NCBI GenBank assembly: GCA_903905655.1
Contig: CAIVHG010000083.1
Span: 2,785 to 66,784, forward strand
Direction of reading: 5' to 3'
Length of the DNA: 64,000 nt
Origin: an uncultured beta proteobacterium
GTDB taxonomy: Bacteria > Pseudomonadota > Gammaproteobacteria > Burkholderiales > SG8-41
Part shown: one piece after another, positions 2,576 through 26,012 of the stretch
Layout of the letters: every line of letters starts with the position of its first letter
Position numbering within the stretch: position 1 is the stretch's first letter
Notes under the pieces: model-generated
The model's input: only the letters and a program-made list of their open reading frames with translations
Databases searched by the model: none
Told to the model about the DNA's origin: nothing
Translations under genes and position numbers: made by a program

Positions 2576-2653
2576 TGCACAGCAAACTTTGAGCCCTGAC
2601 ACACGCAGTATCAGGTTACGCCGTCAACGCCGCTGACCGACTAAAAACACGCC

Positions 2654-4075: not shown

Positions 4076-4164
4076 ACCCCGCCGCCTCGATAGATCGCTG
4101 CCGGATGCGCCCCGCGTCGCCGGGCGCATGCAATCCGCATCCCTGCCACGACTAAGCGAGGCGG

Positions 4165-5715: not shown

Positions 5716-5800
5716 CCACGCTATGCCTGCAATCACGACGCGCGACCTGCGCCTCACTACCACTCCTAGTCTCAGCAGCCACAGCTTCCTGCCGGCTGCC

Positions 5801-7600: not shown

Positions 7601-8856
7601 GCCTGTTGATGAAAGCGCTGGAAAAAGCATCCAAAGACCGCGCATCTACAGACGCCGCCCAAAACACGGAAAAAATCTCGGTGCCACGTCCCTGCAGCGC
7701 GCCACCCGATCTTAGGCTTGAGCCGATTCCGCTGCACAGCACAGCTTCGCATGACGCTTCGACCTCACCCCGCAACCCGCAAGGCGCGAGCGCAACCGCT
7801 CATGGAGATGCGCCGGCTGATCCCAGGCTGGCCGGCGTCATCCGGCAGGCGGGCGAACGCAGAGGTAGCAGCCTGATCGGACACTTGAGCGATCACCCGC
7901 TGATCACGTTTGGCGCCTGCGCCGCCCTCTTCCTCGCCTGCTACGGGGGCTATATCTATCTGCAGATCACACGGCCGACGCTACTCGTCAGACTGCCGAT
8001 GGGTCCGGTGGCGGTGGCCGGTGATGCGCCAAACGCGCACCCTTCCGAAATCGCCACCTCAAAGCCCGACTACAGTGCGGCACCAGCGCCTCTCGCGCTC
8101 GCTCCGCTGCTGCAACCGCCCGCTGCACAAACTGTGGAGCCAGGGCTTCCCCGACTATCTGCCGCGGTCGCAGCGCCGCGCCGCAATTCCGCTGCCACCG
8201 GCTCCGTCGCGACGGCTGTGCCAGCTGCGCCGAATTCCGGCAGCGCTGCGATCCAGGTCTCCGCAGGCGACGCAGCCCCCGCGCTCAATCCGCTGCTCGC
8301 ACAGGCCTACCAGGCTTACAACAGCGGCCGCATTGAAACCGCACAGCCGCTCTACGAACAAGCGCTCAAGAGCGAACCGGAAAACCTGGATGTCCGCTAC
8401 GGATTAGCGGCAATCGCCGCACTGCAGGGCGACCAACTCGCAGCAGCGCGGCATTACGTCAGGATTTTAGAGCTCGATCCCCGCAACGCGCTGGCGCAAG
8501 CCGGATTGATCGCGATGGCGGGCAGCGCCGATCCGCTCGCTGCCGAAACGAGACTCAAGCAACTCATCGCACGCGAGCCATCGGCCTATCTCTACTACGC
8601 CCTCGGCAACGCCTATGCCGACCAGCGGCGCTGGCCGGACGCCCAGCAAGCTTATTTCCAGGCGCATCACCTGGAGCCGGCCAACCCCGACTATGCCTAT
8701 AACCTCGCGGTCGGACTCGAGCATATCGGGCAACCGCGCAGCGCGCTCGGCTTCTACAGGCGCGCTGCGCAACTCGCGACGGCGACAGGCCATGCCGGCT
8801 TCGATACTGCAGCCGCGCAGGCGCGCATCTCCCGGCTGGCACGCGATTTTCCCTAA
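7597..8856 (+). CDS. TPR-repeat protein, MshN-like
   Basis: 419 aa. Its start overlaps the secretin stop (ATGA). It has one TM segment, a Pro/Ala-rich linker, then TPR-like repeats (AYQAYNSGRIETAQPLYEQALKSEPENLDVRYGLA..., YYALGNAYADQRRWPDAQQAYFQAHHLEPANPDYAYNLAVGLEH). Its position between secretin and ATPase matches MSHA loci. Confidence 0.65.
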   Translation: MSLLMKALEKASKDRASTDAAQNTEKISVPRPCSAPPDLRLEPIPLHSTASHDASTSPRNPQGASATAHGDAPADPRLAGVIRQAGERRGSSLIGHLSDHPLITFGACAALFLACYGGYIYLQITRPTLLVRLPMGPVAVAGDAPNAHPSEIATSKPDYSAAPAPLALAPLLQPPAAQTVEPGLPRLSAAVAAPRRNSAATGSVATAVPAAPNSGSAAIQVSAGDAAPALNPLLAQAYQAYNSGRIETAQPLYEQALKSEPENLDVRYGLAAIAALQGDQLAAARHYVRILELDPRNALAQAGLIAMAGSADPLAAETRLKQLIAREPSAYLYYALGNAYADQRRWPDAQQAYFQAHHLEPANPDYAYNLAVGLEHIGQPRSALGFYRRAAQLATATGHAGFDTAAAQARISRLARDFP

Positions 8857-8947
8857 CATCACGAGAATAACAGCGCCCACATGCTGCTGCACGCGAACCC
8901 GATGCGAAATTCCATCCTGTCCGACATTCGCGGCACACTGAACTTTC

Positions 8948-10642
8948 ATGGCTGAACAGCGCAAGAAACTGCGTTTAGGCGAGTTGCTCGCACAACAGGG
9001 ACTGATCTCGGCCGACCAGCTCGGCATCGCGCTCGCCGAGCAGAAGCAAACCCATCTGCCCATCGGGCGGCTGCTGGTGCGCCTTGGCTTCATCACCGAA
9101 GGCACGATCCGCGACATCATGGCGCGCACCGTGGGCCAGGAGGCGATCGACCTGGCGCAGGTGGTCGCCGATCAGGAAGCCCTGCGGCTCGTGCCGCAGG
9201 AATTCGCACGGCGTCACCGCCTGCTGCCGATTGCCTACGACTCGGAAGAACGGCAGCTGAGCATCGCCACCACCGAGATCTTCAACATCGTGGCGCTCGA
9301 CCAGCTGCGCGCCATGCTGAGCCCGGACATCGAAATCCAGACCCAGCTCGCCGGCGAAGCGCAGCTCGAAGACTATATCGATCAATTCTACGGCCACGAG
9401 CTGTCGGTGGACGGCATCCTGCAGGAAATCGAAACCGGCGAAATCGACTATTCGACGCTGCCGGCGGGCGGCGGCGAATACACGCAGCCCATGGTGCGCC
9501 TCATCAACGCGCTGCTGATCGACGCCGTAAAGTGCGGAGCCTCCGATATCCACTTCGAGCCGGAATACGCGTTCCTGCGCATACGCTACCGCATCGACGG
9601 CGTGCTGGAAACGGTGCGCAGCCTGCACAAGACCTATCTGCCAGGCATCACAGTGCGCATCAAAGTCATCAGCGGCATGAACATCGCGGAGATGCGCGCG
9701 CCGCAGGACGGCCGGCTGTCGCTGACGCTCAACGGCAGGCCGGTGGACTTCCGGGTTTCGTCACATCCCACGATCCATGGCGAAAACATCGTCCTGCGCA
9801 TCCTGGACCGCGAGAAGTCGATCATCCGCCTGGACGACATGAACCTGCCGAAGCCCACGCTGGCGAGCCTGAATCAAATACTCGCGCGGCCGGAGGGCAT
9901 CCTGATCGTGACCGGTCCGACCGGCAGCGGCAAGACAACCACCCTCTATTCGCTGCTCTCGCAGGTCAACGACGACACGGTGAACATCATGACGCTCGAG
10001 GACCCGGTCGAATATCCGGTGACCCTCATGCGCCAGACCTCGGTAAACGACGCCGTGCGCCTGGACTTCGCCAACGGCATACGCTCCATGATGCGCCAGG
10101 ACCCCGACATCATACTGGTCGGAGAGATCCGCGATCACGACACTGCTGAGATGGCGTTTCGCGCGGCGATGACCGGCCACCAGGTGTTCTCGACGCTGCA
10201 CACCAATTCCGCGCTCGGCGCATTTCCGCGCCTGCTCGACATCGGCATACAGCCTACCATCATGGCCGGCAACATCATCGGCGTCATCGCGCAACGCCTG
10301 GTGCGTGTGCTATGCGTGCACTGCAAGGAAGCGTACGCCCCGTCGAGCGACGAGCGCCGGCTGCTGGGTTCGTCCGCGGCCAATACGGGTTACGTCTACC
10401 GTCCCCGCGGCTGCAGCAAATGCAACAACAAGGGCTACAAAGGGCGCAGCGCTCTCATGGAACTGCTGGCGATGGATGGCGATCTGGATGAACTCGTGGC
10501 ACGCAGCGCCACCGCCAAGGAATTGCGCGCTGCAGCCCTGACCAAGAACTTCAGACCGCTGGCGGAGGAAGGCATCGCACGGGTGCTCGACGGCACGACC
10601 AGCCTCGCCGAAGTAACGCGCGCCATCAGCCTCGCAGGATAG
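8948..10642 (+). CDS. Type II/IV secretion-family assembly ATPase, MshE/GspE-like, with an MshEN-type N-terminal domain
   Basis: 564 aa with Walker A GPTGSGKTT, Asp box, Walker B DPDIILVGEIRD, His box and a tetracysteine motif (CVHC...CSKC). The N-terminus RLGELLAQQGLISADQLGIALAEQ matches the MshEN motif. Confidence 0.9.
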   Translation: MAEQRKKLRLGELLAQQGLISADQLGIALAEQKQTHLPIGRLLVRLGFITEGTIRDIMARTVGQEAIDLAQVVADQEALRLVPQEFARRHRLLPIAYDSEERQLSIATTEIFNIVALDQLRAMLSPDIEIQTQLAGEAQLEDYIDQFYGHELSVDGILQEIETGEIDYSTLPAGGGEYTQPMVRLINALLIDAVKCGASDIHFEPEYAFLRIRYRIDGVLETVRSLHKTYLPGITVRIKVISGMNIAEMRAPQDGRLSLTLNGRPVDFRVSSHPTIHGENIVLRILDREKSIIRLDDMNLPKPTLASLNQILARPEGILIVTGPTGSGKTTTLYSLLSQVNDDTVNIMTLEDPVEYPVTLMRQTSVNDAVRLDFANGIRSMMRQDPDIILVGEIRDHDTAEMAFRAAMTGHQVFSTLHTNSALGAFPRLLDIGIQPTIMAGNIIGVIAQRLVRVLCVHCKEAYAPSSDERRLLGSSAANTGYVYRPRGCSKCNNKGYKGRSALMELLAMDGDLDELVARSATAKELRAAALTKNFRPLAEEGIARVLDGTTSLAEVTRAISLAG

Positions 10643-10643
10643 C

Positions 10644-11852
10644 ATGCTCGCATTTCGCTACAAAGCAGTCGACCGTGCCGGGCGCCCGGCACGCGGGGCG
10701 CTCGATGCGCTCAATGAAGTCGACCTCGAACTGCGCCTGCGCCGCATGGGGCTCGACCTCATCACCTTTCGTGAAGTAGACAAAAGCGCAGGCGGATTCG
10801 GCGGCGGCCGCCGCATCACGCGCCGCGATCTGATCACCTTCTGCTTCGATCTGGAGCAGATCACGCGCTCCGGCATCGCGTTGCTCGACGGCGTCCGCGA
10901 TCTGCGCGATTCGATCGAAAACCTGCGCTTCAGGGAAGTGCTCACCGCCCTCATCGAGGACATGGAGGGCGGTCAACTGCTGTCGCAGGCGATGTCGCAT
11001 CAGCCCCACGTATTCGACAAGGTGTTCGTCAGTTTGGTGCGCGCCGGTGAGCAGGCCGGGCGACTGCTGGAGGTATTCGAAAATCTCGGCAAGACGCTCA
11101 AATGGCAGGATGAACTCGCAAGCCAGACCAAGCGCCTCCTGATCTACCCCGCGCTGGTGCTGGCGGTCGTCTCCGGCGTGATGGTATTCATGCTCGTCTA
11201 CCTGGTGCCGCAGGTCGTGCAACTGCTGAAGACCATGGCGATCGCGCTGCCGCTGCAAACGCGCGTGCTGATCTTCATCTCGGATGCGTTCGTCGAGAAC
11301 TGGATGCTGCTGCTCGGCGTGCCGCTCGCCGGTGCCGCCGTCCTGACGGCGCTCGTCGCACGCAACCAGAAGGCGCAGTACCTGTGGGATTACGCGAAGC
11401 TGCACTTTCCGGTAATTGGACCGATCCTGCTGAAGATCATATTGTCGCGTTTCGCCAATTTTTTTGCGCTCATGTACCAATCGGGCATCAGCATTCTGGA
11501 TGCCATCAAGACTTCCGAAGGCATCGTCGGCAATCGCGTCATCGCCGACGGCCTGATGCGCGCCGGGCAACAGATCAATGCCGGCGAGAATCTTACCGAC
11601 ACCTTCCACAATCTGGGGGTGTTTCCGCCGCTGGTGATCCGCATGATGCGCGTAGGCGAGGTAACCGGCTCGCTGGACACCGCGCTGCTTAACATTACCT
11701 ACTTCTACAACCGGGACGTCAAAGAATCGGTGGACCACAACCTTGCCCTGCTCGGTCCGCTGCTGACGCTGGTGCTCGGCGGCATGCTGATGCTGATCAT
11801 GTGGTCGGTGCTTGGCCCGGTATACGAAATCTTCGGCAAAATGAGAATTTAG
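10644..11852 (+). CDS. GspF/PilC/MshG-type inner-membrane platform protein
   Basis: 402 aa with the two-repeat T2SSF architecture (FCFDLEQITRSGIALLDGV... and FFALMYQSGISILDAI...). It starts 1 nt after the ATPase gene. Confidence 0.9.
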   Translation: MLAFRYKAVDRAGRPARGALDALNEVDLELRLRRMGLDLITFREVDKSAGGFGGGRRITRRDLITFCFDLEQITRSGIALLDGVRDLRDSIENLRFREVLTALIEDMEGGQLLSQAMSHQPHVFDKVFVSLVRAGEQAGRLLEVFENLGKTLKWQDELASQTKRLLIYPALVLAVVSGVMVFMLVYLVPQVVQLLKTMAIALPLQTRVLIFISDAFVENWMLLLGVPLAGAAVLTALVARNQKAQYLWDYAKLHFPVIGPILLKIILSRFANFFALMYQSGISILDAIKTSEGIVGNRVIADGLMRAGQQINAGENLTDTFHNLGVFPPLVIRMMRVGEVTGSLDTALLNITYFYNRDVKESVDHNLALLGPLLTLVLGGMLMLIMWSVLGPVYEIFGKMRI

Positions 11853-13409
11853 ATGTCTGACAAGCTGCTCATCGCATTATCTGCGCGACAGGTCAGTGTC
11901 GCGCGCTGGCAGGGCCGGCGCTTCGACGGCTGCCTACTCTTTGCCTATAGCGACACCGGGCTCGACGAGTTCAGGGGATATCTCGCGACACTGAGCCGCA
12001 TGCCGGTCTACATGATCGTCGATGCAGTCGAGGAAGATTATCGCGTCGAATCGCTGCCCCACACATTCGGCATCGATCGCGCCCAGCTCTTGAAGCGCAA
12101 GCTCAAACAACATTACCGGAACTCGCCATACTGCAATGCCCTGCTGCAGGGCCGCGACACTGGCAAGCGCCGCGACGACCGTTATCTGTTCTGCGCGCTC
12201 ACCAATCCCGGGCTCATCGACGCCTGGGTGGCCGCCATCCTCGAGCTTGGAATGCCGCTTGCCGGAATCTATCTGCTGCCCACGGTGAGCCTGTGCCTGG
12301 TGGAAAAGCTGAAGCTCAGGAGCACCAATCTGCTGGTGGTATCGCCCGAGAGCTCGGGCCTGCGCCTGACCTGCCTTAGAGGCCAGAAACTGCGCTTAAG
12401 CCGCCTCGCGCGCATCGAGGCGAGCGGCATACCCATCACCCAGTACGCGGCGGAGATCTCGAACACGCGTTTGTATCTGCACGCGCAGCGCGTGATGACG
12501 CTCGAAGAACGGCTGTCGGTGTTGATCGTCGACCGCCACGACTCCCTGGGCCGGCTCGAGTACACCATCGGGCGCGACAATCCAAATGTGGACTGTCGCC
12601 GCCTCGGCCACCAGGACATCATCGAACAGGTCGGCATTTCCGCAGCGGCCCTCGACTCAACCGTCGATGCGCTCTATCTGCACCTGCTGGGACTGCGCGC
12701 CCCAGCAATCAATCTTGCCCATGGCAATATCACCTTTGGTCACCGTCAGCATCAGGCGCGCCGCGGAATCCATGCGCTGGCAGCACTCAGCGCGTTTGGC
12801 GCAGCCGTGTGGTGCGCCTTCACGGCGTATCAGATCTTCGATACGACCTCGGAGACCGCCCAGGCCACCCGCCAAACCACTGCACTGCAGGCTCAATATA
12901 CGATTGCGGCGCGCCAGTTTCCGGCCGCGCCCACGTCTTCCGAAAACCTGCAGCGTGCGGTGGAGGTTTCGCAAAGGATAGGCGCCACTACGCGCTCACC
13001 GGACGCCATGATGGGGTTGGTAAGCCATGCGCTCGCCGACTATCCGTCGATCACGCTCAAGGCCTTTGGCTGGAAATACGGGTCCACCGAGATCGATCCC
13101 GAGACCAGCCGCGGGCTGCCGGCGCCTCACAGCGCACCGGTGCCCGGTACAGGCAGCGTGCGCCGGCAAAGCGGCTTCATCGCGGGAGAAGTTCGTCCTT
13201 TTCGCGGCGACTATCGTGCGGCGATCGAGGTCATCAACCGCTATGCCGACAGCCTGTCACGGCAGCCGCAAGTCGCGGAAGTGCGAATCATCAAGCTGCC
13301 GCTCAATATCAGCCCCAGCCTGACGCTCTCCGGCAACACCAGCGACAGTGCGGAAAACAGCGGGAAAGCAGAATTCAGATTGCTGTTGATACTCAAGCCA
13401 ACCGCATGA
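11853..13409 (+). CDS. Bitopic assembly protein, PilM-PilN fusion-like (MshI-like)
   Basis: 518 aa. A roughly 300 aa cytoplasmic domain is followed by one TM segment (GIHALAALSAFGAAVWCAFTAYQIF) and a roughly 190 aa periplasmic domain. It abuts the platform gene. The assignment rests on architecture and position only. Confidence 0.5.
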   Translation: MSDKLLIALSARQVSVARWQGRRFDGCLLFAYSDTGLDEFRGYLATLSRMPVYMIVDAVEEDYRVESLPHTFGIDRAQLLKRKLKQHYRNSPYCNALLQGRDTGKRRDDRYLFCALTNPGLIDAWVAAILELGMPLAGIYLLPTVSLCLVEKLKLRSTNLLVVSPESSGLRLTCLRGQKLRLSRLARIEASGIPITQYAAEISNTRLYLHAQRVMTLEERLSVLIVDRHDSLGRLEYTIGRDNPNVDCRRLGHQDIIEQVGISAAALDSTVDALYLHLLGLRAPAINLAHGNITFGHRQHQARRGIHALAALSAFGAAVWCAFTAYQIFDTTSETAQATRQTTALQAQYTIAARQFPAAPTSSENLQRAVEVSQRIGATTRSPDAMMGLVSHALADYPSITLKAFGWKYGSTEIDPETSRGLPAPHSAPVPGTGSVRRQSGFIAGEVRPFRGDYRAAIEVINRYADSLSRQPQVAEVRIIKLPLNISPSLTLSGNTSDSAENSGKAEFRLLLILKPTA

Positions 13410-14014
13410 ACATCCACGATCTCAAGGCGCTCAGGATTCCACTGGCGATGCTGCTGGCCGTGCTTGCCACAGCGGCAGGCCTGATCTATTACAGCAATGC
13501 CGTGCTCGCTCAGGCGCGGCTAGAATTGACCGGGAAACAGGCTCAACTGCGCGAGGCGCGCCTGCGGCTGCAAACCTCCGGCGACCAGAAGGCAGTCATC
13601 GTGCGTTATCTGGACGACTACCGCCGCCTGCAGCAGCTCGGTTTCATCGACGAGGAGCAGCGCATCAACTGGCTCGACGGCTTGCGCCTCAGCAATCAGC
13701 AGCTGCGGCTGTTCGGCGTGGATTACGAAATCGGCACGCAGCAGCCATACCCCTATGCGAGCGAGCTCAATCCGGGCCAGCTGGCGCTGTTTCAATCGGT
13801 CATGAAAGTCCACCTGAGCCTGCTGCACGAAGCGGACCTGCAGCATTTCCTGGGCATCCTCTCGCAGCAGGGCGCGGGCGTGTTCTCGGTCAACGAGTGC
13901 CTGCTGGAGCGCAGCGAGGCACCCGACGGCATACGCTATCAACCCAATCTGCGCGCGAACTGCGAGCTCGCCTGGATCACCATGCGGCCAGGCGCACCGG
14001 GAGAGAAGAAATGA
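13406..14014 (+). CDS. Bitopic coiled-coil protein, PilO/MshJ-like
   Basis: The ATG at 13406 overlaps the upstream stop (ATGA). The 202 aa product has an N-terminal TM segment (IPLAMLLAVLATAAGLIYY), a coiled coil (QARLELTGKQAQLREARLRLQ) and a globular domain. Confidence 0.45.
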   Translation: MNIHDLKALRIPLAMLLAVLATAAGLIYYSNAVLAQARLELTGKQAQLREARLRLQTSGDQKAVIVRYLDDYRRLQQLGFIDEEQRINWLDGLRLSNQQLRLFGVDYEIGTQQPYPYASELNPGQLALFQSVMKVHLSLLHEADLQHFLGILSQQGAGVFSVNECLLERSEAPDGIRYQPNLRANCELAWITMRPGAPGEKK

Positions 14015-14598
14015 TGCGAACTATGACTGCGCTGGTGCTGTGTCTGGTCTGGTGTGCACCGCTCGCTGCGGCCGATATCGAACGCATGTTTTACACGCGG
14101 CAGGAACGCGCTCTGCTCGACGACATGCGAGAAAACAAATTACGCAGCACAGTCGCCAGCGAGGAGCCTGCCGCGCCGATCCCACAGCATGTGGTGGTGA
14201 ATGGACTCGTGCGCCGCAGCGATGGAAAAAACACCGTTTGGCTCAACAACCGCGCAACCACGGAACGTCGTGCAGAGCCCATCAGCGTCACGACCAGCAA
14301 GAACAACGACCGCGTCAGTCTCACCGTACGCGACAGCGGTCGCAGCATCGACCTCAAGGTCGGACAAAGCGCCGAGATCGTGAGCGGGACCATTACCGAA
14401 GGCTATGCCAAGCGCGCAGCACCGATACCGGTGACCAAACCGGATGGCGAAAGAAGCACAGGCAGCAACGGCAAGACCACACGCGCTGGCTCCATGAGAT
14501 ACGATCAAATCACCTCCAGAGACAGCCCTCGGGGGGGCGAAAAAACGTTTGATCCGCCGGATGAAGCTGTGCGCGCGAAAGATGAAAATTCAAAATAG
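14011..14598 (+). CDS. Secreted/periplasmic protein of unknown function (in the MshK/PilP position)
   Basis: The ATG at 14011 overlaps the upstream stop (ATGA). The signal peptide is MMRTMTALVLCLVWCAPLAAAD. The 195 aa product has a charged, low-complexity C-terminus. Confidence 0.4.
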   Translation: MMRTMTALVLCLVWCAPLAAADIERMFYTRQERALLDDMRENKLRSTVASEEPAAPIPQHVVVNGLVRRSDGKNTVWLNNRATTERRAEPISVTTSKNNDRVSLTVRDSGRSIDLKVGQSAEIVSGTITEGYAKRAAPIPVTKPDGERSTGSNGKTTRAGSMRYDQITSRDSPRGGEKTFDPPDEAVRAKDENSK

Positions 14599-14636
14599 TT
14601 TTGCGTCGTGTTAATCGGGCTTCAGAACCACTCACG

Positions 14637-15839
14637 ATGCTCGTGATACTCACTCCTGACAATTCCGGTCCGGCTTTGACCAGCTGCCGCACCCGCGGCT
14701 CGGCTCAGGCAGGCTATGCGCTGCTGCTGTTTCTGCTCCTGATCATCACAGGTCTCGCCGCGGCACTGTTAAGCTACGCCAGAACTTCGTCGCAGCAACT
14801 CACCAGAGATCAGATCACGGCCGCAGCGCTGGCGCAGGCTAAAACGGCGCTGATCGGCGAGGCGGCAGACGACCTTAACAGGCCCGGTAGCTTGCCGTGC
14901 CCAGATCAGGACAACAATGGCCAGCTTGATCTCGGCGTCGACTTCTCTGGCAACAGCTGCGTAAGCTATATTGGCAGGCTTCCCTGGAAAACTCTGGGCC
15001 TGCCGGACCTACGGGATGGAAGCGGCGAGCGGCTCTGGTATGCCTTGTCCCCCAACTTTCGCGATTATTCCGCAGCCGGACCGCTCAACAGCGACACCAA
15101 CGGCATATTGACGATCACCGGCATCAGTCCGGCAGCCCAGATAATAGCAATTGTATTTGCGCCCGGCCCTGCGGTCGGCATCCAACTCCGCGATGCCGCA
15201 AACCAAAACAACGTTGCGAACTATCTTGACGGCATCAATACGCTGGGTGGCAATACCAATATTTATACCACGGGTCCTGCGACCGATATCTTCAACGATC
15301 GCTTGCTAGAAATAACGAGCGACGCGCTGTTTCCCGCCGTCACGATGCGGGTCGCCCGCGAGGCGAAGTTGCTTCTCAACAAGTACTATACCAACTATAA
15401 CTATTTTCCAAACGCAGCCAGCTACGCCAGTTCGAGCTGCGACCCCAACCTTACTCAGGGCAGAATTCCACTTACGATAGCCAACACCTGCCCTAAGCAA
15501 CAAGAATGGGGCCCATCAATAATGAAGACTTGGAAATGGTTTTTTGACAACAACTGGCACCAGGTGGCGCATTACGCGGTCGCCCCCGCTTGCGTTGATC
15601 CCATGCAACCCAATTGCACGGGCACCGGCTTTCTCACGGTAATAGGCGCCGGGGCATCCAACCCTACCGTAGAAGCGCTGACCATCGTCACGGGGCGCGC
15701 TTACACTGGCCAAGCTCGCCCTTGCGCAGTTGTCGCCGATTGTCTTGAAGCTCCCGAGAATACGAACACCGACAACGTTTACCTCGATGCCCGAGTCACT
15801 CCCAGCACCAACGACCGCCTGATGGTTGTTGCCCCTTAG
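14637..15839 (+). CDS. Large minor pseudopilin-like protein lacking Glu+5 (GspK-like class)
   Basis: About 400 aa. The N-terminus ...RGSAQAG/YALLLFLLLIITGLAAALL resembles a prepilin leader and hydrophobic helix, but position +5 is Leu rather than Glu. The large periplasmic domain has several Cys residues. GC is lower (about 50-55%) than its surroundings. A TTG at 14601 is an alternative start. Confidence 0.45.
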   Translation: MLVILTPDNSGPALTSCRTRGSAQAGYALLLFLLLIITGLAAALLSYARTSSQQLTRDQITAAALAQAKTALIGEAADDLNRPGSLPCPDQDNNGQLDLGVDFSGNSCVSYIGRLPWKTLGLPDLRDGSGERLWYALSPNFRDYSAAGPLNSDTNGILTITGISPAAQIIAIVFAPGPAVGIQLRDAANQNNVANYLDGINTLGGNTNIYTTGPATDIFNDRLLEITSDALFPAVTMRVAREAKLLLNKYYTNYNYFPNAASYASSSCDPNLTQGRIPLTIANTCPKQQEWGPSIMKTWKWFFDNNWHQVAHYAVAPACVDPMQPNCTGTGFLTVIGAGASNPTVEALTIVTGRAYTGQARPCAVVADCLEAPENTNTDNVYLDARVTPSTNDRLMVVAP

Positions 15840-15848
15840 GACGAGCCG

Positions 15849-16586
15849 ATGAAGACAGATGGCGGTTTTACACTGATTGAACTTGCCGTGGCACTGGTCG
15901 TCGTCACACTCATATTAGGCGGCCTGCTGGTGCCACTGAACACCCAGGTTGAGCAACGCAAAATCTCGGATACGCAAAAGAGTCTCGATGAAATTAAGGA
16001 AGCACTGATCGGGTTTGCCGTTGCCTATGGTCACCTGCCGTGTCCGGCAACTTCTGCAACTGGCCTCGCAAGCGGCCTGGAAGGGCCACGCACCGGAGGC
16101 ATATGCACGCCACGTACAGGTTTTGTTCCATGGGCTACGCTGGGCACCTCCAAATTAGATGCCTGGGGAAATATCTTCGGCTACAGGGTTAGTGACAACT
16201 ATTCTTCCGCTGTGTCTCCAATCACCTTCACCAGCTCAGCCGATATGACTATTCTGACGAAGGACGGCACCGGTGCGATCGCCTTTCTTAGCAACGTCAA
16301 CGGCACACCAGCAGTGGTGATGTCCTACGGCAGGAATGGTTACGGTTCCGTCAATGATCGAGGCATCGCACAAGCACTACCCGCTAATTGGCCGGCAAAC
16401 AACGCCGACGAAAATAGCAACGCAACCCGCTTAAGCGCAGACCCCCCGATCCGAGCTGGCTTTGTCAGTCGCGCCCCGCAAGCCGATAGCGCAAGCGGCG
16501 CTGGTGGAGAATTCGATGACATCGTGGTGTGGATCTCACCAAGTATTTTGTTCAACCGGATGGTGGCAGCGGGCAGACTGCCGTAG
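15849..16586 (+). CDS. Prepilin-type N-terminal cleavage/methylation domain protein (minor pilin or pseudopilin)
   Basis: It carries the canonical class III signal MKTDGG/FTLIELAVALVVVTLILGGLL. 245 aa. Confidence 0.8.
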   Translation: MKTDGGFTLIELAVALVVVTLILGGLLVPLNTQVEQRKISDTQKSLDEIKEALIGFAVAYGHLPCPATSATGLASGLEGPRTGGICTPRTGFVPWATLGTSKLDAWGNIFGYRVSDNYSSAVSPITFTSSADMTILTKDGTGAIAFLSNVNGTPAVVMSYGRNGYGSVNDRGIAQALPANWPANNADENSNATRLSADPPIRAGFVSRAPQADSASGAGGEFDDIVVWISPSILFNRMVAAGRLP

Positions 16587-16594
16587 CCACGACT

Positions 16595-18295
16595 TCAGAC
16601 AGCGGCGCGCGCCAGCTCGAAACACACCCTGCCGTCGACGTTGCTGTTGAGCGCAAGCCGGTAACCCAGGCGCTGTGCATGCCGCCCTGCCTGTAACAGC
16701 CCAACCCCGAGTCCAGTGGCAGATGGGACGGGCGCGCTGAACAGTCCGGATGCAATCGCAGCGGGTAGCGCAGGGCCGGTATCGCACACCGTAAGCCTCC
16801 CTCCGCGCGCGCAGGCTAACGCGACTTCAATGCTCACGCCCGGATGCTGCTGCGCCTTCGCGATCGCATTCTGCAGCAGATTTTCCGCAACGCTGTCGAA
16901 GAGCTCGCCCGGCAACGGGACGCCCGCAGTGACGCCAGCATCCAGAAAGCTGACGCACCCCACGGCATAGCGCTGTTTGAGCGCCTCCCACCAGGCCAGT
17001 GCGTCGACCTGCGTCGTCCTCGCCTGGTGCGGCGTCCTGAGCTTCTCGAGCGTGAGCGAGAGGCGCTGCGCGATGGCGGGCAGCTGACGCTTGATCAAAG
17101 CCTGAAACTCCACCGACTCCTCAGCGTTGCTGTCCTCAGCCGCGGCACATAGCGCCGCCAGCGACTGCAGTAGATTCTTCACGTCGTGCGTAAGCCGCGC
17201 GCCCGTCTCGTAAATGGCTTGGGCATAGGCATTGTCGCGTTGCGCCTGTTCGCGCCGCTTCGCGTCGTAAAAGTGCGCCAGCATCTGAGTCAACAGCTTC
17301 AGATGCAGGTAGAGCGCCGGGCTCAGAGACCAGCGCGTGTGGAACGTCAGGTGCACATCACTGGCCGTACATTGCGTCGTGAAACGCGTACGCGCCCCGA
17401 GCTCCCCGCTCGCATGCGGCGCATCCCATGCAACACCCGATACCCAGGGCAGCTCGCAAAGGCTCTGCATTGCAAGCGCCATGAACTGCGCCGGTTGCGG
17501 TTCGCGCTCGGCGACATCTGCGAGTTCATGCAGCCAGCGCTCGAACGGCAAACCCAGCGTCATCAGATAGCGCGACCAGAGCTGACCGATGCCGATGAAA
17601 CCGCTGTGCGGATTCCACAGCCAGCTCAGGCTGAGCAGGACAACTGCCATCACCATCAGGCTTTGTGCAAGCGCCAGCGGATAGTCGCCCTGGCTCAACT
17701 GCTTCACCACAAAGCTGCCGAGCACGAGCCCGGCCACCAGCAGGAACAGCATCATGCTGTAGTAGAGATCCACGACGACCGGCGGACAGCGGCGCCCGCC
17801 CACCGCCGGAACGGCGATGATGACGAGCGGCAGCCATACCAGCCCGTACTGCACGAACCACACGAACGTCGACGCCAGCGCCAGGTCCGCGAACAGGTGC
17901 GGAACCACCCACACCAGCAGCAACGTCAGCAAGTATAGTGCCGCCAGCAGCGCGACGAGACGCTGGCTGCGCGGCGCGCTTCCCAGCAGGCTACCGCCGA
18001 TCAGCGCGAATAACACCGCGATCCAGGTAGCCATCACCCACCAGGTGTTCCAGACCATGAACATCAGCGCTGCCGCGGCGATCCACCCAATGTGCCGCGG
18101 TTCCAGGCTGCGCTCACCGCACCACAGCGGCTGCCACACCAGGAACAGCCCACAATGCGCGAGCAGCATGGCGCGCGCCGGCCAGCCGTCGATGCCCCAG
18201 GCGAGCGAGCTATGCAGCGTCAGCAGCATCGCAGCCAGCCACCATTGCGGATGTGATGCTGTAGATTGAGACGGCAAAACCGTGGAGGATTCCAT
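16595..18295 (-). CDS. Polytopic membrane sensor histidine kinase, PrsK-like
   Basis: 566 aa. The first roughly 250 aa are almost entirely hydrophobic (about 8-10 predicted TM segments). It has the H-box ARLTHDVKNLLQSL, the N-box ENLLQNAIAKA and the G-box TGLGVGLLQ. It is convergent with the pilus operon, with stops 8 bp apart. Confidence 0.85.
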   Translation of the reverse strand: MESSTVLPSQSTASHPQWWLAAMLLTLHSSLAWGIDGWPARAMLLAHCGLFLVWQPLWCGERSLEPRHIGWIAAAALMFMVWNTWWVMATWIAVLFALIGGSLLGSAPRSQRLVALLAALYLLTLLLVWVVPHLFADLALASTFVWFVQYGLVWLPLVIIAVPAVGGRRCPPVVVDLYYSMMLFLLVAGLVLGSFVVKQLSQGDYPLALAQSLMVMAVVLLSLSWLWNPHSGFIGIGQLWSRYLMTLGLPFERWLHELADVAEREPQPAQFMALAMQSLCELPWVSGVAWDAPHASGELGARTRFTTQCTASDVHLTFHTRWSLSPALYLHLKLLTQMLAHFYDAKRREQAQRDNAYAQAIYETGARLTHDVKNLLQSLAALCAAAEDSNAEESVEFQALIKRQLPAIAQRLSLTLEKLRTPHQARTTQVDALAWWEALKQRYAVGCVSFLDAGVTAGVPLPGELFDSVAENLLQNAIAKAQQHPGVSIEVALACARGGRLTVCDTGPALPAAIASGLFSAPVPSATGLGVGLLQAGRHAQRLGYRLALNSNVDGRVCFELARAAV

Positions 18296-18384
18296 CTTTG
18301 ACCCCTCAAGCTCGCTTCAAGTGCAGCCTCCGGGACGCAACATTCGCTATACTGACCCGGTTAACGGATCGGGCCAGCATATCC

Positions 18385-19158
18385 ATGCACGGGCACCAAA
18401 TTGCAGCCATCGCCCGCTTCACGGTAATTGAAGCCTGGCGCACGCGGTTGCTGTTGCTCTACGCAGTCTTGCTCGGGCTGATCCTCGGCGCGGCATATTT
18501 TCTGCAGCAACTCGCGATCACGGAAAGCATCCGCCTGCAGCTTGCGTTTTCCGCTGCCGCCATCCGGCTGGCGTCGGTCTGCGTGCTGTGCCTGCATGTG
18601 TCAACCAGCGTCACCCGGGAATTCAACGACAAGGGCCTCGAGCTCACCCTCTCTTTCGATCTGCCGCGCTCCCATTATATTCTCGGCCGCCTGGCGGGGT
18701 TCTTGATCGTTGCAGTGCTGCTGGCGATGATGGCGACGCTCCCGCAACTGCTGCTCGCTCCGGCGCCGGCGGCTTTGCTGTGGGGTGCGTCGCTCGTACT
18801 GGAGCTGGCGATCGTCGCCGCGCTCAGTTTGTTCTGCGTAGTGACCTTCACTCAGCTCATGCCGGCGGCAAGCTTTGTCTGCGGATTCTATCTGCTCGCG
18901 CGTGCGCTGACGGCGCTACGGCTGATGAGCAGCGCACCGCTCGCCAGTGCAGACACGCTCACCCATCAGTTGATCGGCGTACTGATCGATACCTTGGCGC
19001 TGCTGTTGCCGGCACTGGACGATTTTGCGCAAAGCGCCTGGCTAATCGAGGGCACGGCAAACTGGGCCGTGCTCGGCGCTAATGCGGCCCAGGCAGGGCT
19101 CTACATAGCACTGCTCGGCGCAGCGACGATGTTCGACTTCTACCGCAAAAATCTATGA
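18385..19158 (+). CDS. ABC-2-type transporter permease
   Basis: About 257 aa and 6 hydrophobic segments. The N-terminus IAAIARFTVIEAWRTRLLLLYAVLLGLILG is typical of ABC-2 permeases. There is no ATPase gene next to it. The ATG at 18385 is preferred over the 18298 start that abuts the kinase gene. Confidence 0.7.
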   Translation: MHGHQIAAIARFTVIEAWRTRLLLLYAVLLGLILGAAYFLQQLAITESIRLQLAFSAAAIRLASVCVLCLHVSTSVTREFNDKGLELTLSFDLPRSHYILGRLAGFLIVAVLLAMMATLPQLLLAPAPAALLWGASLVLELAIVAALSLFCVVTFTQLMPAASFVCGFYLLARALTALRLMSSAPLASADTLTHQLIGVLIDTLALLLPALDDFAQSAWLIEGTANWAVLGANAAQAGLYIALLGAATMFDFYRKNL

Positions 19159-19859
19159 AGCGTCGGGAGGAGCGGCCGCTCGCCGCAGTGCCGCGTGCAG
19201 TATGGTTTGTGCTATGCGCCGTCCTGAGCCTGCAAATACTGTGGCACGCCTCGCTTTCCAGGCCGGTCGCGAGCGCAGACGCCCTTCCAACTCCGCCACG
19301 AGCAGGCGCGCTGCGGCTTGCAAGCCTGGGCGAACCCGCGGCGCTTGCCCAGTTGATGACGCTCTACCTGCAGGCCTTCGACAACCAGCCGGGCGTCAGC
19401 ATCCCGTTTAGTGAACTCGATTACGCACGCGTGACGGAATGGCTGGCCGCCATACTCGAGCTCGATCCCGCCAGCCAATATCCCCTGCTGCTCGCCGCCC
19501 AGGTCTACTCCCAAGTGCCGGACGCGGCGCGCGTCCGCCTGATGCTCGATTTCGTCGAACGGCAGTTCATGCGCGATCCGAACCGCCGCTGGCGCTGGCT
19601 TGCGCATGCCGTGATCGTGAGCAGGCACCAGTTGCACGACGACGCGCTGGCTCTGCGCTACGCGCGCGAAATCGCGCGCAGGGCGCCCGCGGCGCCGGAT
19701 TGGGCGAAGCAGATGCACATCTTCATACTCGCGGACATAGGCGAAATCGAGAGTGCGCGGATTCTCTTGGGTGGTCTGATCGAGAGTGGCCAGATTACGG
19801 ATCTGCACGAGCAGCGCTTCTTGCTGGAACGGCTGAAAGCAATGAAATCCGGCGAGTAG
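19155..19859 (+). CDS. Membrane-anchored helical-repeat protein of unknown function
   Basis: 234 aa. Its start overlaps the permease stop (ATGA). It has an N-terminal anchor (AVWFVLCAVLSLQILW) followed by an all-helical, TPR-like sequence. Confidence 0.55.
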   Translation: MKRREERPLAAVPRAVWFVLCAVLSLQILWHASLSRPVASADALPTPPRAGALRLASLGEPAALAQLMTLYLQAFDNQPGVSIPFSELDYARVTEWLAAILELDPASQYPLLLAAQVYSQVPDAARVRLMLDFVERQFMRDPNRRWRWLAHAVIVSRHQLHDDALALRYAREIARRAPAAPDWAKQMHIFILADIGEIESARILLGGLIESGQITDLHEQRFLLERLKAMKSGE

Positions 19860-19984
19860 CCGTCAGTGTCGTCGAAGTATCGACGGCCGCCCCCCACTGC
19901 CGCGTGCGAATTGCATTCAATGCGGCCAATCATCGAGCGAGCATCAGTAGGGCCACGCCGTTAACCTGCGTGCGGGCGAATGGA

Positions 19985-20000
19985 TGGCACAGATGTTGCT
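19985..20000 (+). promoter_or_regulatory. Sigma-54 (-24/-12) promoter for the pilin gene
   Basis: TGGCAC-AGATG-TTGCT is an exact match to the consensus TGGCAC-N5-TTGCW. It lies in a 185 bp intergenic region, 45 bp upstream of the pilin ATG. Confidence 0.7.
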
Positions 20001-20044
20001 CATTGCGTATGGCTTAATTGCTTACTTTGTAAAGGACCGCGGCG

Positions 20045-20740
20045 ATGCGCAGACAAACCGGTTTTACCTTGATCGAAATCGCGATCGTGCTCGTCATCAT
20101 AGGCCTGTTGCTGGGCGGAATCCTTAAGGGGCAGGAGCTCATCACCAGCGCGCGCGTGCGCAACCTCATCTCACAGCAGGAAGGCGTCAAGGCCGCATAT
20201 TTTGGCTTCCTCGATCGCTATCGCGCGCTTCCCGGAGACTACGATCAGGCGAGCAAGAACATCGCGAACATCGCCGGAGTGACGCAATGCGGAACCGGCG
20301 ACGGCAATGGCAACGGACGCATCGAGACGACCGGCAACGAGAACATCCTGGCATGGGAACATTTATCGAAAGCCGGCTTCATCAATGGATCGTACACGTG
20401 CAACCCTACAGAATCGAATGCAACGACCCCGACCAACCCGTACGCGGTGCGGCTGCAGCTGGTATGGGACAGCGATTATGCCGATGCCGGCGGCAATCCA
20501 CCGCTGCGCCACAATCTCAAAACCGGCAATCAGATCCCTTCGGACATACTCGCGGAAGTCGATCGCAAGATAGACGACGGCAACGCCCTGGCCGGGGTGT
20601 TTAGATATACCAATGCAACTTATCTCGGCGGCGCATCGCCCGTCGCTTCGTCTGCATCAACCTGCTATTCAGCGACAGCGCCCTATAACTGGAACGCCAC
20701 CAGCCCGCAGTCGAATTGTAGCGGCGTCACGCTGTTCTAG
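20045..20740 (+). CDS. Type IV pilin / T2SS-type pseudopilin (candidate major subunit)
   Basis: It carries the class III signal MRRQTG/FTLIEIAIVLVIIGLLLGGILKGQELI. 231 aa with four Cys residues (two potential disulfides). GC is about 50%, lower than the flanks. Confidence 0.85.
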   Translation: MRRQTGFTLIEIAIVLVIIGLLLGGILKGQELITSARVRNLISQQEGVKAAYFGFLDRYRALPGDYDQASKNIANIAGVTQCGTGDGNGNGRIETTGNENILAWEHLSKAGFINGSYTCNPTESNATTPTNPYAVRLQLVWDSDYADAGGNPPLRHNLKTGNQIPSDILAEVDRKIDDGNALAGVFRYTNATYLGGASPVASSASTCYSATAPYNWNATSPQSNCSGVTLF

Positions 20741-20870
20741 CGCCTAAACGCCAGCCAACTCCCCCAAAAGCATTTCCGGTATCACGCCGACCGCATGTAT
20801 ATGCGGCCGGTGATTGTAGGTTTGCCATGGCCGCAGCGTCGCAGGGGACATTTGATATACTGTCCGCCTC

Positions 20871-21872
20871 ATGACTGCCCCCCAAAAAGCCTCAGCGCCC
20901 GTTTCCGGCGACGCGCTCGAACTAGCGCGCGAAGTGCTCGAGATCGAGGCGGCGGCGATCACCGGCCTCATCGCAAAGCTGGATCAGGCGTTTCAGCATG
21001 CGGTCGATCTGATCCTCGCCTGCCGCGGGCGCGTCATTGTGACCGGCATCGGCAAGTCCGGGCACATCGCGCGCAAGATCGCTTCCACCATGTCGAGCAC
21101 CGGAACGCCCGCTTATTTCCTGCACCCCGCCGACGCCAGCCATGGCGATCTGGGCATGATCGCAAGCGGCGACGTGGTGATCGCGCTGTCCAATTCCGGG
21201 GAGAGCGCAGAACTGCTCGCGATCCTGCCGTTGCTCAAGCGCCAGGGCGCGCGCTTGATCGCGTTTACCGCCAGAGCCGATTCGGAACTCGCCCGCGAGT
21301 CCGATGCAGTTTTGTACGCGGGCGCGGAAAAGGAAGCGTGCCCACTCAATCTCGCGCCGACCGCTAGTTCCACCGCCGCGCTCGCGCTCGGCGACGCACT
21401 TGCGCTCGCGCTGATGCAGGCCAAAGGCTTCAGCCGCGACGAATTCGCGCGCTCGCACCCAGGCGGCAGCCTCGGCCGCAAACTGCTCACCCACGTGCAC
21501 GACGTCATGCGAAGCGGCCCCGAAACGCCGCATGTTCCCGTCGCGGCGAGCCTGTCCGACGCAGTCCTCGAAATCACTCGCGGCTGCCTGGGCATGACCG
21601 CGGTCGTCGACACCGATCAGCGCGTCGTTGGCATCTTCACCGATGGCGACCTGCGCCGCACGCTGTTCAATGGCAGTGCCGACTTCCAGTCCCAAAAGGT
21701 CGTGAACGTGATGACGCGCAGCCCGCGCACCATCGGCCCGGACAAGCTCGCGGTAGAAGCGGTAAAGCTCATGGAAGATCACCGCATCAACCAACTGCTG
21801 GTGGTCGACGCCGACCAAAGGCTGCTGGGCGCGCTCAACATGCACGACTTGTTCAAAGCCAAGGTGATCTGA
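20871..21872 (+). CDS. kdsD: Arabinose-5-phosphate isomerase KdsD (SIS + tandem CBS)
   Basis: 333 aa. SIS motif GRVIVTGIGKSGHIARKIASTMSSTGTPAYFLHP, with CBS domains at the C-terminus. Confidence 0.9.
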   Translation: MTAPQKASAPVSGDALELAREVLEIEAAAITGLIAKLDQAFQHAVDLILACRGRVIVTGIGKSGHIARKIASTMSSTGTPAYFLHPADASHGDLGMIASGDVVIALSNSGESAELLAILPLLKRQGARLIAFTARADSELARESDAVLYAGAEKEACPLNLAPTASSTAALALGDALALALMQAKGFSRDEFARSHPGGSLGRKLLTHVHDVMRSGPETPHVPVAASLSDAVLEITRGCLGMTAVVDTDQRVVGIFTDGDLRRTLFNGSADFQSQKVVNVMTRSPRTIGPDKLAVEAVKLMEDHRINQLLVVDADQRLLGALNMHDLFKAKVI

Positions 21873-24548: not shown

Positions 24549-26012
24549 ATGATGAAGCACTCGCTCCAACTCCGGCTATCGCAGCACCTGACGCTCACCC
24601 CGCAGTTGCAGCAGTCGATCAGGCTACTGCAGCTCTCGACGCTGGAGCTCGATCAGGAGATCGAGAAGTTTCTTCAGGACAATCCTTTGCTCGAGCGCGA
24701 AGACGACGCACGCGCAGAAGGGATTGACGCGCCTCCAGCCGGAGCCGTGGATTACGCCCCCAGCGCCCCCGTTTCGAGCAGCAGCACCGAGACGGCAAGC
24801 GACACGGACGGCGATATGCGCAACGCGGGCTCCGATAGCGCCGCGGGCTACGAGGAAGAATCCCGCTACGCGTCTGCGCCCAACCGCGATGACAACGACG
24901 AAGCGCAGTATCCTCAGGTCGCCGCTGAAACAGAGTCGCTGCGCGAGCACCTGCTTGCCCAGCTGTCGGTCACCAACATCGGGGTGCGCGAGCAGCGCCT
25001 GGTCGAGCTGCTGATCGACTCTCTGGATGAGAACGGCTACCTGCAGCAAGACCTGGAAGAGCTCGCGGGCATCCTGCCGCCGGAACTGGAGGTAGGGATC
25101 GATGAACTGCACCTTGCGCTCACCTACCTGCAGCACCTGGAGCCTGCAGGCATCGGCGCCCGCAATCTCGGCGAATGCCTGAGGCTGCAGCTCGACGCAT
25201 TGCCGGAAACCACCCGCTACCGTGCGCATGCGCTGAACATCGTCGTGCACCATCTGGACGCGCTTGCGGCCCGCGACTACAACAAGCTGAAGAAGCTGCT
25301 GCATTGCGAGGACGAAGTCCTGCGTGGCGTGAAAAACCTGATCACCGGACTCAACCCGCGCCCGGGCGCCAGCTATTTCTCCGGCGATACCCGCTACATC
25401 ATCCCCGACGTCATCGTCAAGAAGACCAAGGGCGAGTGGGTTGCTGCGCTCAATCCCGACGCCATGCCGCGGCTGCGCATCAATCAGATGTATGCCAATA
25501 TCCTGCAGCGCAACCGCGACAGCGGGCACCAGCAGCTCGCGAGCCAACTACAGGAAGCGCGCTGGCTCATCAAGAACGTGCAGCAGCGCTTCGACACCAT
25601 ATTGCGCGTCTCGCAGGCCATCGTCGAGCGCCAGCGGCATTTTCTGGAACACGGAGAAGTCGCCATGCGGCCGCTGGTGCTGCGCGAAATCGCCGATACT
25701 CTCACCCTGCACGAGTCTACGGTGTCGCGCGTCACGACGCAGAAATTCATGTCGACGCCGCGCGGAATTTTCGAGCTCAAATATTTCTTCGGCAGCCACG
25801 TGACGACGCACACCGGCGGCGCCGCATCGAGCACTGCGATCCGCGCGCTGATCAAGCAGCTGGTGAGTTCGGAGAACGCAAAGAAACCGCTTTCGGACAG
25901 CCAGATCTCGGAGATATTGAGTCAGCAGGGCATGGTGGTCGCACGGCGCACGGTGGCAAAATACCGGGAGTCGATGCGAATACTTCCAGTCAATCTGCGC
26001 AAATCGATTTGA
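24549..26012 (+). CDS. rpoN: RNA polymerase sigma-54 factor RpoN
   Basis: 487 aa. Region I is LQLRLSQHLTLTPQLQQSIRLLQLSTLEL. The RpoN box is ARRTVAKYRESM. Confidence 0.95.
   Translation: MMKHSLQLRLSQHLTLTPQLQQSIRLLQLSTLELDQEIEKFLQDNPLLEREDDARAEGIDAPPAGAVDYAPSAPVSSSSTETASDTDGDMRNAGSDSAAGYEEESRYASAPNRDDNDEAQYPQVAAETESLREHLLAQLSVTNIGVREQRLVELLIDSLDENGYLQQDLEELAGILPPELEVGIDELHLALTYLQHLEPAGIGARNLGECLRLQLDALPETTRYRAHALNIVVHHLDALAARDYNKLKKLLHCEDEVLRGVKNLITGLNPRPGASYFSGDTRYIIPDVIVKKTKGEWVAALNPDAMPRLRINQMYANILQRNRDSGHQQLASQLQEARWLIKNVQQRFDTILRVSQAIVERQRHFLEHGEVAMRPLVLREIADTLTLHESTVSRVTTQKFMSTPRGIFELKYFFGSHVTTHTGGAASSTAIRALIKQLVSSENAKKPLSDSQISEILSQQGMVVARRTVAKYRESMRILPVNLRKSI

Follow-up and report, generated by a model that had tools for sequence, protein, structure and literature searches.

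Gene content and organization of the pilus cluster

The window, by which we mean the whole 64-kb stretch of DNA from an uncultured beta proteobacterium that was analysed, contains a pilus cluster of about 19 kb (1811-20740) placed between mlaFEDCB on the minus strand (mlaF, 769-1572) and a plus-strand series that starts at 20871 with kdsD-kdsC-lptC-lptA-lptB and continues with rpoN and hpf. The cluster opens with the plus-strand genes for an ABC ATPase (1811-2575) and a response regulator (2654-4075). These are followed by a machine operon on the same strand, which encodes an ExeA/MshM-like AAA_22 ATPase (4165-5715), an MshL-like secretin (5639-7600; 233.3 bits against the MshL cut-off of 250.2), a TPR protein (7597-8856), an MshE-like ATPase with a c-di-GMP-binding MshEN motif (8948-10642; NF053729, 62.1 bits, cut-off 38), a GspF-like platform protein (T2SSF; 10644-11852), several unknown proteins (11853-15839) and, at its end, a second prepilin-type protein of 245 aa with an N_methyl domain (15849-16586). 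With the MshEN motif above its cut-off and the MshL model just under, the machine can safely be labelled MSHA-like on these model scores. A histidine kinase gene on the minus strand (16595-18295) comes next, and then, on the plus strand, genes for a polytopic membrane protein (18385-19158, a probable start within the frame 18298-19158), a single-TM protein (19155-19859) and the pilin.

The pilin gene (20045-20740, plus strand) encodes a prepilin of 231 aa in which a MRRQT leader is followed by GFTLIE (MRRQT, then GFTLIEIAIVLVIIG...), and it is recognized by the PF07963 N_methyl, TIGR02532 and IV_pilin_GFxxxE models. Its match to MshA is limited to the first 23 residues, and its resemblance to solved type IV pilins is confined to the N-terminal helix, the globular part having no solved relative by sequence. 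The protein belongs to a large family whose members, 60-75% identical, occur in Burkholderiales and in Betaproteobacteria metagenomes; a 99% identical pilin (P0001) is known as well. The gene at 20045, which a preliminary description of this DNA had called the separately encoded pilin gene, is not the lone prepilin-type gene, given the N_methyl protein at 15849-16586. The gene just before the latter (14601-15839) codes for 412 aa and shows a hydrophobic segment at its N-terminal end, and both products are likely minor or atypical pilins. Downstream of the pilin gene, 45 nt past its stop codon, a hairpin followed by a weak T-tract (ATTGTAGGTTTG; 20785-20812, plus strand) was predicted in the MFE structure as well as in the centroid; it may tentatively be taken as the end of the pilin transcript, the terminator scan giving no call there.

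The placement of the cluster at the mla/kds-lpt-rpoN junction is kept in many Betaproteobacterial relatives, and the cluster resembles a conserved island in a housekeeping junction of which rpoN happens to form part. The cluster also occurs in complete genomes, among them OZ244144.1 and OZ244981.1. The rpoN gene, which encodes σ54 (24549-26012, plus strand; NF004598, 724.9 bits, cut-off 621), lies 4.5 kb downstream of the pilin promoter region, as had been described. In most relatives a KefC-like gene (Na_H_Exchanger and TrkA domains, ~653 aa, minus strand; for instance at 1922-3078 in L084 and 1943-3066 in L086) stands between the pilin gene and kdsD; the window has no such gene, and kdsD begins 130 bp past the pilin gene. 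An ABC ATPase, a membrane protein with 5-6 TM segments and a single-TM protein accompany the pilin across loci. In the Gammaproteobacterial loci (L055-L078), an ABC ATPase gene, recognised solely through a 22-31% tblastn match to lptB, directly follows the pilin gene, and the ABC ATPase gene of the window (1811-2575) lies at the opposite end of the cluster from the pilin. This association of an ABC ATPase and membrane proteins with a pilin is reminiscent of PilGHI, the ABC transporter associated with Myxococcus pili.

A probable σ54 promoter element upstream of the pilin gene

A σ54 -24/-12 promoter element, TGGCAC-AGATG-TTGCT (TGGCACAGATGTTGCT), was located by pattern match and conservation at 19985-20000 on the plus strand. 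It consists of TGGCAC (19985-19990), AGATG (19991-19995) and TTGCT (19996-20000), and it matches all 11 specified positions of the consensus TGGCAC-N5-TTGCW. The two characteristic doublets, GG at 19986-19987 and GC at 19998-19999, are separated by exactly 10 bp. The sequence and coordinates given for this consensus-perfect element in the preliminary description were thus exact. The element is intergenic, has the same orientation as the pilin gene and ends 44 nt before the pilin ATG (20045), so that its reported position just ahead of the GFTLIE pilin also stands.

A search of both strands of the window with TGGCACNNNNNTTGCW returned a single match with zero mismatches, the element at 19985-20000, against a chance expectation of 0.08. 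The exact match taken alone is only suggestive, because at least one such match also appeared in 7 of 100 dinucleotide-preserving shuffles of the window. Matches with up to two mismatches showed no enrichment in the window, with 31 found and 39.6 expected.

The gap in which the element lies extends over 185 bp (19860-20044), from the end of the upstream gene at 19859 to the pilin ATG, and is the largest in the cluster; the remaining gaps measure about 78-91 bp once one gene start is corrected, which bears out the earlier statement that this is the only sizeable gap of the locus. A Shine-Dalgarno-like AAGGA, read directly from the sequence, is found at 20032-20036, 8 nt before the pilin ATG. 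In the standard geometry of σ54 promoters, transcription starts about 12 nt after the -12 GC, and the start predicted in this way, about 12 nt past the C of that doublet, falls at 20010-20012 on the plus strand. The resulting 5' UTR would measure about 34 nt; in folding predictions it performed no better than shuffled sequences and appears unstructured. Rfam yielded no match at E-values up to 1 in the interval 19600-21000, and between 19859 and 20045 we found neither a σ70-like promoter nor, with the terminator scan, a terminator.

Two further features of the gap were noted. On the minus strand, a σ54-like sequence with two mismatches (TGGCCCTACTGATGCT, 19940-19955) points away from the pilin gene, and a 10-nt direct repeat (GCGTGCGAAT/GCGGGCGAAT) is present in two copies 70 bp apart. 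Both are probably due to chance.

Conservation of the element in related loci

The comparative set comprised 80 fetched loci from Beta- and Gammaproteobacterial MAGs, with relatives of the pilin at 42-70% best-segment identity. In these loci we searched for elements with the GG-N10-GC doublets in register and at most two mismatches. Such an element was present in the zone from -100 to -20 of the pilin start in 54 of the 77 testable loci, when about one was expected at the rate observed over all 1.5 million scanned positions (0.013 per locus). In a histogram of plus-strand matches, 54 lay in the pair of 50-bp bins immediately before the pilin, and every other bin held at most 4. With the first pilin of each locus taken as reference, tandem-pilin loci included, 50 of 64 loci carry the element in the stretch that separates this pilin from the gene upstream. 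In loci with two or three pilin paralogues in tandem (L007, L022, L032, L044, L049), the σ54 element and the palindromes described below precede the first copy only.

In most relatives, the distance from the end of the element to the start codon ranges from 33 to 60 nt, and in three closer relatives that were fetched separately (L084-L086) the element stands 36-48 nt before the ATG. A MAFFT alignment of the whole gap with these closer relatives misaligned the -24/-12 elements, which were therefore located by pattern instead. The elements compiled across the family give the consensus TGGCACG-N4-TTGC, in which the seventh position, outside the search pattern, is G in 45 of 56 elements. The extended σ54 consensus is reportedly TGGCACG (attributed to Barrios and co-workers, 1999), with which the G at this unselected position agrees. 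Such positional conservation constitutes a strong phylogenetic footprint of a σ54 promoter.

A clear element is lacking in about one quarter of the related loci. The gap is very short in part of them, suggesting co-transcription of the pilin with the genes upstream. L001, L018 and L064, for example, have a short gap ahead of the pilin and no σ54 element. L001 (4391-6675) and L018 (4476-6663) are variant loci in which only genes for the membrane protein, the single-TM protein and the pilin lie beside kdsD, the pilin being preceded by a gap of 69-123 bp, with no kinase or machine gene within 4-6 kb upstream. Neither the σ54 element nor the palindrome is present in L001 and L018, and the joint absence of machine and kinase, promoter and palindromes in these two loci is consistent with the promoter model.

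A tandem palindrome as candidate enhancer, and a variable IHF site

In the aligned upstream regions we observed a recurring palindrome, TGTCGA-N4-TCGACA, which was absent from the preliminary description. With up to three mismatches allowed, it produced 82 matches in the zone from -260 to -30 of 57 loci, 26-fold more than the 3.2 expected from the remainder of the same loci, and at least one site was present in 50 of the 57. Paired sites are usual, with a modal start-to-start spacing of 20 bp (17 pairs in other loci) followed by 30 bp (4 pairs).

The window carries such a pair. The proximal candidate activator site, CGTCGA-AGTA-TCGACG at 19870-19885, is a perfect palindrome identified by both PWM and pattern. 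It is the sole exact match in the window to YGYCGA-N4-TCGRCR and, at 16.2 bits with a PWM built from other loci only, the top position of the entire 64 kb. A weaker distal copy, CGGCGA-GTAG-CCGTCA (CGGCGAGTAGCCGTCA), is located at 19850-19865, exactly 20 bp upstream of the proximal site, sharing bases with the stop codon of the preceding gene; it has 4 mismatches to the strict consensus and ranks 12th by PWM among about 64,000 positions. The proximal site aligns with the equivalent element in L084-L086, and distal copies align in L084 and L086. Other high-scoring PWM palindromes, at 38446 and 46337, are intragenic, have no nearby σ54 element and were taken as chance occurrences, the only strong intergenic occurrence in the window being at the pilin promoter. 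The tandem dyads, which lie 115-135 bp ahead of the -24 element and so in the range of about 70-250 bp usual for σ54 enhancers, have the arrangement expected for the sites of an NtrC-type activator, and we consider them putative binding sites.

Eleven relatives carry exact matches to the IHF consensus (WATCAANNNNTTR) between the palindromes and the promoter (12 matches against 0.25 expected), and an IHF site between enhancer and promoter is classic σ54 architecture. In the window, the interval 19886-19984 contains no match to WATCAANNNNTTR on either strand with up to two mismatches, and, there being no recognisable IHF site, no IHF-dependent loop is proposed for the window. An AT-rich segment of about 100 bp that is present in L084-L086 is missing from the window, so that the enhancer lies closer to the -24 element here (about -115) than in relatives (about -185 to -250). 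The helical phasing of enhancer and promoter was also considered. In a Rayleigh test on 50 proximal sites of related loci, with periods between 8 and 13 bp, the best value (p = 0.009 at 11.0 bp) was unconvincing, because 21 periods were tested and the loci are related to one another.

Some relatives have additional conserved sequences in this region. A Betaproteobacterial subset (L012, L023, L033, L038, L050, L054) has a second conserved palindrome, TGTGA-N6-TCACA, that resembles CRP-type sites. It is located some 60-90 bp ahead of the -24 element, with the IHF-like AT-rich segment on one side and the promoter on the other, and has no counterpart in the window. In L008, L011 and L030 the corresponding place, some 60-100 bp ahead of the -24 element, is taken by different conserved blocks common to the three loci, GGTTTCCGCACGG ... 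TTCACGGA, which suggests additional clade-specific regulators.

The regulator, the kinase and control of the machine operon

The response regulator at 2654-4075 combines Response_reg, Sigma54_activat (E = 5.7e-63) and HTH_8 domains and is the sole σ54 activator encoded in the window, which substantiates the earlier report of such a regulator 16 kb upstream of the promoter. Its REC and σ54 AAA+ domains are accompanied by an intact Walker A motif (GESGSGKE) and a Fis-type HTH. The σ54 contact loop reads GSFTGA in place of the canonical GAFTGA, with the F-T-G-A residues kept. The best NCBIfam matches, to the PEP-CTERM-box regulator at 344.7 bits and to NtrC at 341 bits, stay below the respective cut-offs of 502.6 and 558.6, and no PilR model is among the listed matches. 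Its closest solved relatives are generic NtrC-family proteins. Orthologues with 75% identity in L081 and L083 keep the position between the ABC ATPase gene and the machine operon, the gene order there being mlaFEDCB on the minus strand, then ABC ATPase, regulator, ExeA-like protein, secretin, TPR protein, MshE and GspF.

The candidate sensor partner is the histidine kinase encoded at 16595-18295 on the minus strand, which has a HATPase_c domain and the H-box RLTHDVKNLL. Judged by hydropathy only, it has at least five strong hydrophobic segments in residues 81-225, weaker ones before them and no large periplasmic loop. Its position near the pilin region is conserved in most related loci. The regulator and kinase genes lie about 12.5 kb apart on opposite strands.

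Since it is the only one nearby, occupies a conserved position in the cluster and has an intact Walker A motif, GSFTGA loop and Fis-type HTH, the response regulator (2654-4075) ranks as the best candidate for the activator of the pilin promoter, and probably is that activator, its link to the palindrome being drawn by location only. The Gammaproteobacterial loci were rejected as proof of a regulator beside the pilin: the regulators in L068 and L078 carry the NtrC HTH and are non-orthologous, and L073 alone has an HTH similar to that of the window regulator.

The preliminary description had also stated that no comparable element precedes the machine operon or the ABC ATPase gene, and this holds for both consensus and PWM scans of the window and of two relatives. 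Ahead of the ABC ATPase gene, no σ54-like element with the GG/GC core and up to three mismatches was present in the window or in L081 and L083, and neither a palindrome nor a σ54-like element was found upstream of the regulator gene in the window and the two relatives. Near the machine operon, no palindrome occurs in any of these three loci, and the σ54-like matches, such as the intragenic TGGACCTGATGTTGCA of the window (3921) and, for L081 and L083, AGGCGGCGAAATTGCT, were discarded as weak and unconserved. The divergent region between the kinase gene and 18385 and the region of the second prepilin gene gave only weak intragenic matches to the σ54 and enhancer elements, which were likewise set aside. 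The genes of the assembly machine appear to use other promoters. As a separate observation, the c-di-GMP motif on the pilus ATPase raises the prospect that the machine may be gated post-translationally and the pilin transcriptionally.

Weighing of alternative explanations

We assign a probability of roughly 80% to the reading that 19985-20000 is a functional σ54 (RpoN) promoter driving the gene for the major pilin in an MSHA-like type IV pilus cluster. That a σ54 promoter drives the pilin, as originally proposed, is strongly supported by the conservation in related loci together with the conserved upstream palindromes. An accidental match without promoter function might be argued from the shuffled windows that also yield exact matches and from the lack of window-wide enrichment of looser ones, but it would leave unexplained why 54 of 77 loci carry the element in the same place, with a conserved enhancer alongside and with the orientation and start-codon distance of a promoter; this very improbable reading is effectively refuted by the comparative data. 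It is also quite unlikely that the pilin is expressed mostly by read-through from the 18385-19859 unit or from an unrecognised σ70 promoter, with the σ54 element playing a minor role or acting under special conditions. Some read-through from the two upstream genes could occur because no terminator was found ahead of the pilin, and the loci with a short gap and no element (L001, L018, L064) indicate that co-transcription exists in the family. Yet element and enhancer alike are retained beside pilins of 42-75% identity in two proteobacterial classes, which would be hard to reconcile with a minor promoter; moreover, the gap is the largest of the cluster and contains no σ70-like site.

A further alternative concerns the activator and accepts the σ54 promoter as real, with the activating protein encoded elsewhere in the genome and the regulator at 2654-4075 serving other targets. 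The regulator gene lies 16 kb from the promoter, is not in an operon with the kinase gene, and its product scores below the cut-off of every NCBIfam activator family. In the Gammaproteobacterial relatives, moreover, the 6 kb on either side of the pilin encode no activator other than NtrC itself (HTH ...LLGWGRNTLTRK), if any, so that adjacency of an orthologous regulator is seen in the Betaproteobacterial clade only. Against this, the regulator is the lone σ54 activator in the 64 kb, it stands at the head of the pilus cluster in relatives too (75% identical), and the palindrome has its only strong intergenic site of the window at the pilin promoter, as would be the case for a dedicated regulator. 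We regard an activator encoded elsewhere as unlikely.

Comparison with known pilin regulatory systems

σ54-dependent pilin promoters are textbook knowledge, and the case described here matches the PilS/PilR-σ54-pilA paradigm in an MSHA-like cluster. Control of pilins by σ54 is also known in Kingella, Dichelobacter, Geobacter and Myxococcus. In Pseudomonas aeruginosa, PilS/PilR and σ54 control pilA, and the PilR sites are NifA-like TGT-N11-AGA sequences plus GTCT elements (PMC6058289); in Xanthomonas, the pilin is under RpoN2-PilRX control (PMC7170775). The PilS/PilR system has a polytopic kinase without a large periplasmic domain, and its assembly genes are transcribed separately (PMC6058289; PMC7170775). 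The locus in the window appears to share with it a pilin that has its own σ54 promoter, a REC-AAA+-HTH regulator, repeated upstream sites and separate machine genes. Its sites, a palindrome that reads TGT-N10-ACA with GTC/GAC, recall the TGT-N11-AGA and GTCT elements of PilR. PilS-type kinases have about six transmembrane segments, and the kinase here looks polytopic by hydropathy, with at least five strong segments. There are also differences: pilSR form an operon by pilA, whereas the two genes here are separated by about 12.5 kb on opposite strands, and the regulator here is under all curated family cut-offs. Unlike type IVa systems, the machine is MSHA-like (MshL-like secretin, MshE-type ATPase with a c-di-GMP motif, ExeA/MshM-like ATPase) and not PilBCD/PilMNOPQ, and the pilin is long, at 231 aa. 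We did not file the system as a member of PilSR, because the kinase and regulator genes do not form an adjacent operon and the NCBIfam matches are all below cut-off.

In commensal Neisseria, which are Betaproteobacteria, pilE is controlled by RpoN, IHF and Npa/Nps, the IHF site being placed between the activator sites and the promoter (PMC6528607), and in Geobacter PilR acts with IHF (PMC2725144, PMC7962754). A σ54 pilin promoter and a two-component activator would be common to the Neisseria system and the window, and the position of IHF is shared by relatives of the locus. In contrast, the window has no recognisable IHF site, its enhancer is closer (about 115 bp, compared with about 185-250 bp in the relatives), and the pilus is of another type.

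The MSHA locus of Vibrio cholerae, with a secretory and a separate structural operon, resembles the window in its MSHA-like components and in having the pilin apart from the secretion genes; it differs in gene order, and the two-component pair, the ABC ATPase and the membrane protein found here are not in the Vibrio locus. ATPases of the MSHA/MshE type carry a c-di-GMP-binding N-terminal motif (PMC4624765, PMC4624772). No report of σ54 control of an MSHA pilin was found in the literature searched, a limited negative.

The palindrome also invites comparison with NifA, whose consensus upstream activating sequence is TGT-N10-ACA, since TGTCGA-N4-TCGACA is formally of this form. However, the regulator here has a receiver domain, whereas NifA has a GAF domain; the conserved inner bases CGA...TCG are particular to the family described here, and tandem spacing of 20 bp is not a NifA hallmark.

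Proposed mechanism and biological significance

In the mechanism that we infer, including its start site, its dependence on rpoN, the identity of the binding activator and the signal sensed by the kinase, σ54 RNA polymerase would bind the GG (-24) and GC (-12) doublets and form a closed complex unable to open alone. Dimers of an NtrC-type activator would occupy the two palindromic sites at 19850-19865 and 19870-19885, assemble into an ATPase ring, loop to the polymerase and open the promoter, and transcription from near 20011 would then yield a short-leader, probably monocistronic pilin mRNA. Phosphorylation of the regulator (2654-4075) would be carried out by the kinase (16595-18295), which, by analogy with PilS, might monitor pilin in the membrane (PMC6058289). 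It is plausible that the pilin subunit is the gated step, which would match the Pseudomonas pilA paradigm.

A more far-reaching reading, which we offer tentatively and consider rather doubtful, is that the orphan regulator of NtrC type and the polytopic kinase could, together with the tandem enhancer, form a dedicated σ54 circuit distinct from PilSR. This circuit would govern an uncharacterised, widespread island of an MSHA-like pilus and an ABC transporter in uncultured soil and groundwater Beta- and Gammaproteobacteria, with the kinase sensing the membrane pool of pilin in the manner of PilS. The placement next to kdsD-lptCAB-rpoN, found in Betaproteobacteria, would then be functionally meaningful and not a neutral insertion site.

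The findings leave the general understanding of σ54 or of pilin regulation unchanged. The additions made here are a tandem enhancer that relatives conserve, an IHF module that varies, and evidence of how broadly the arrangement is kept. The notion of a σ54-gated pilin with a machine that is otherwise expressed is extended to an MSHA-like system, the Vibrio model of which is known for c-di-GMP control of the ATPase. The pilus family is common among uncultured Burkholderiales and their relatives but has yet to be described experimentally, and for it the analysis adds a confident regulatory annotation consisting of a promoter, enhancer sites, and a candidate activator and sensor. The conserved palindrome, in turn, offers a concrete DNA target for the regulator of the cluster and can be used to define its regulon in complete genomes.
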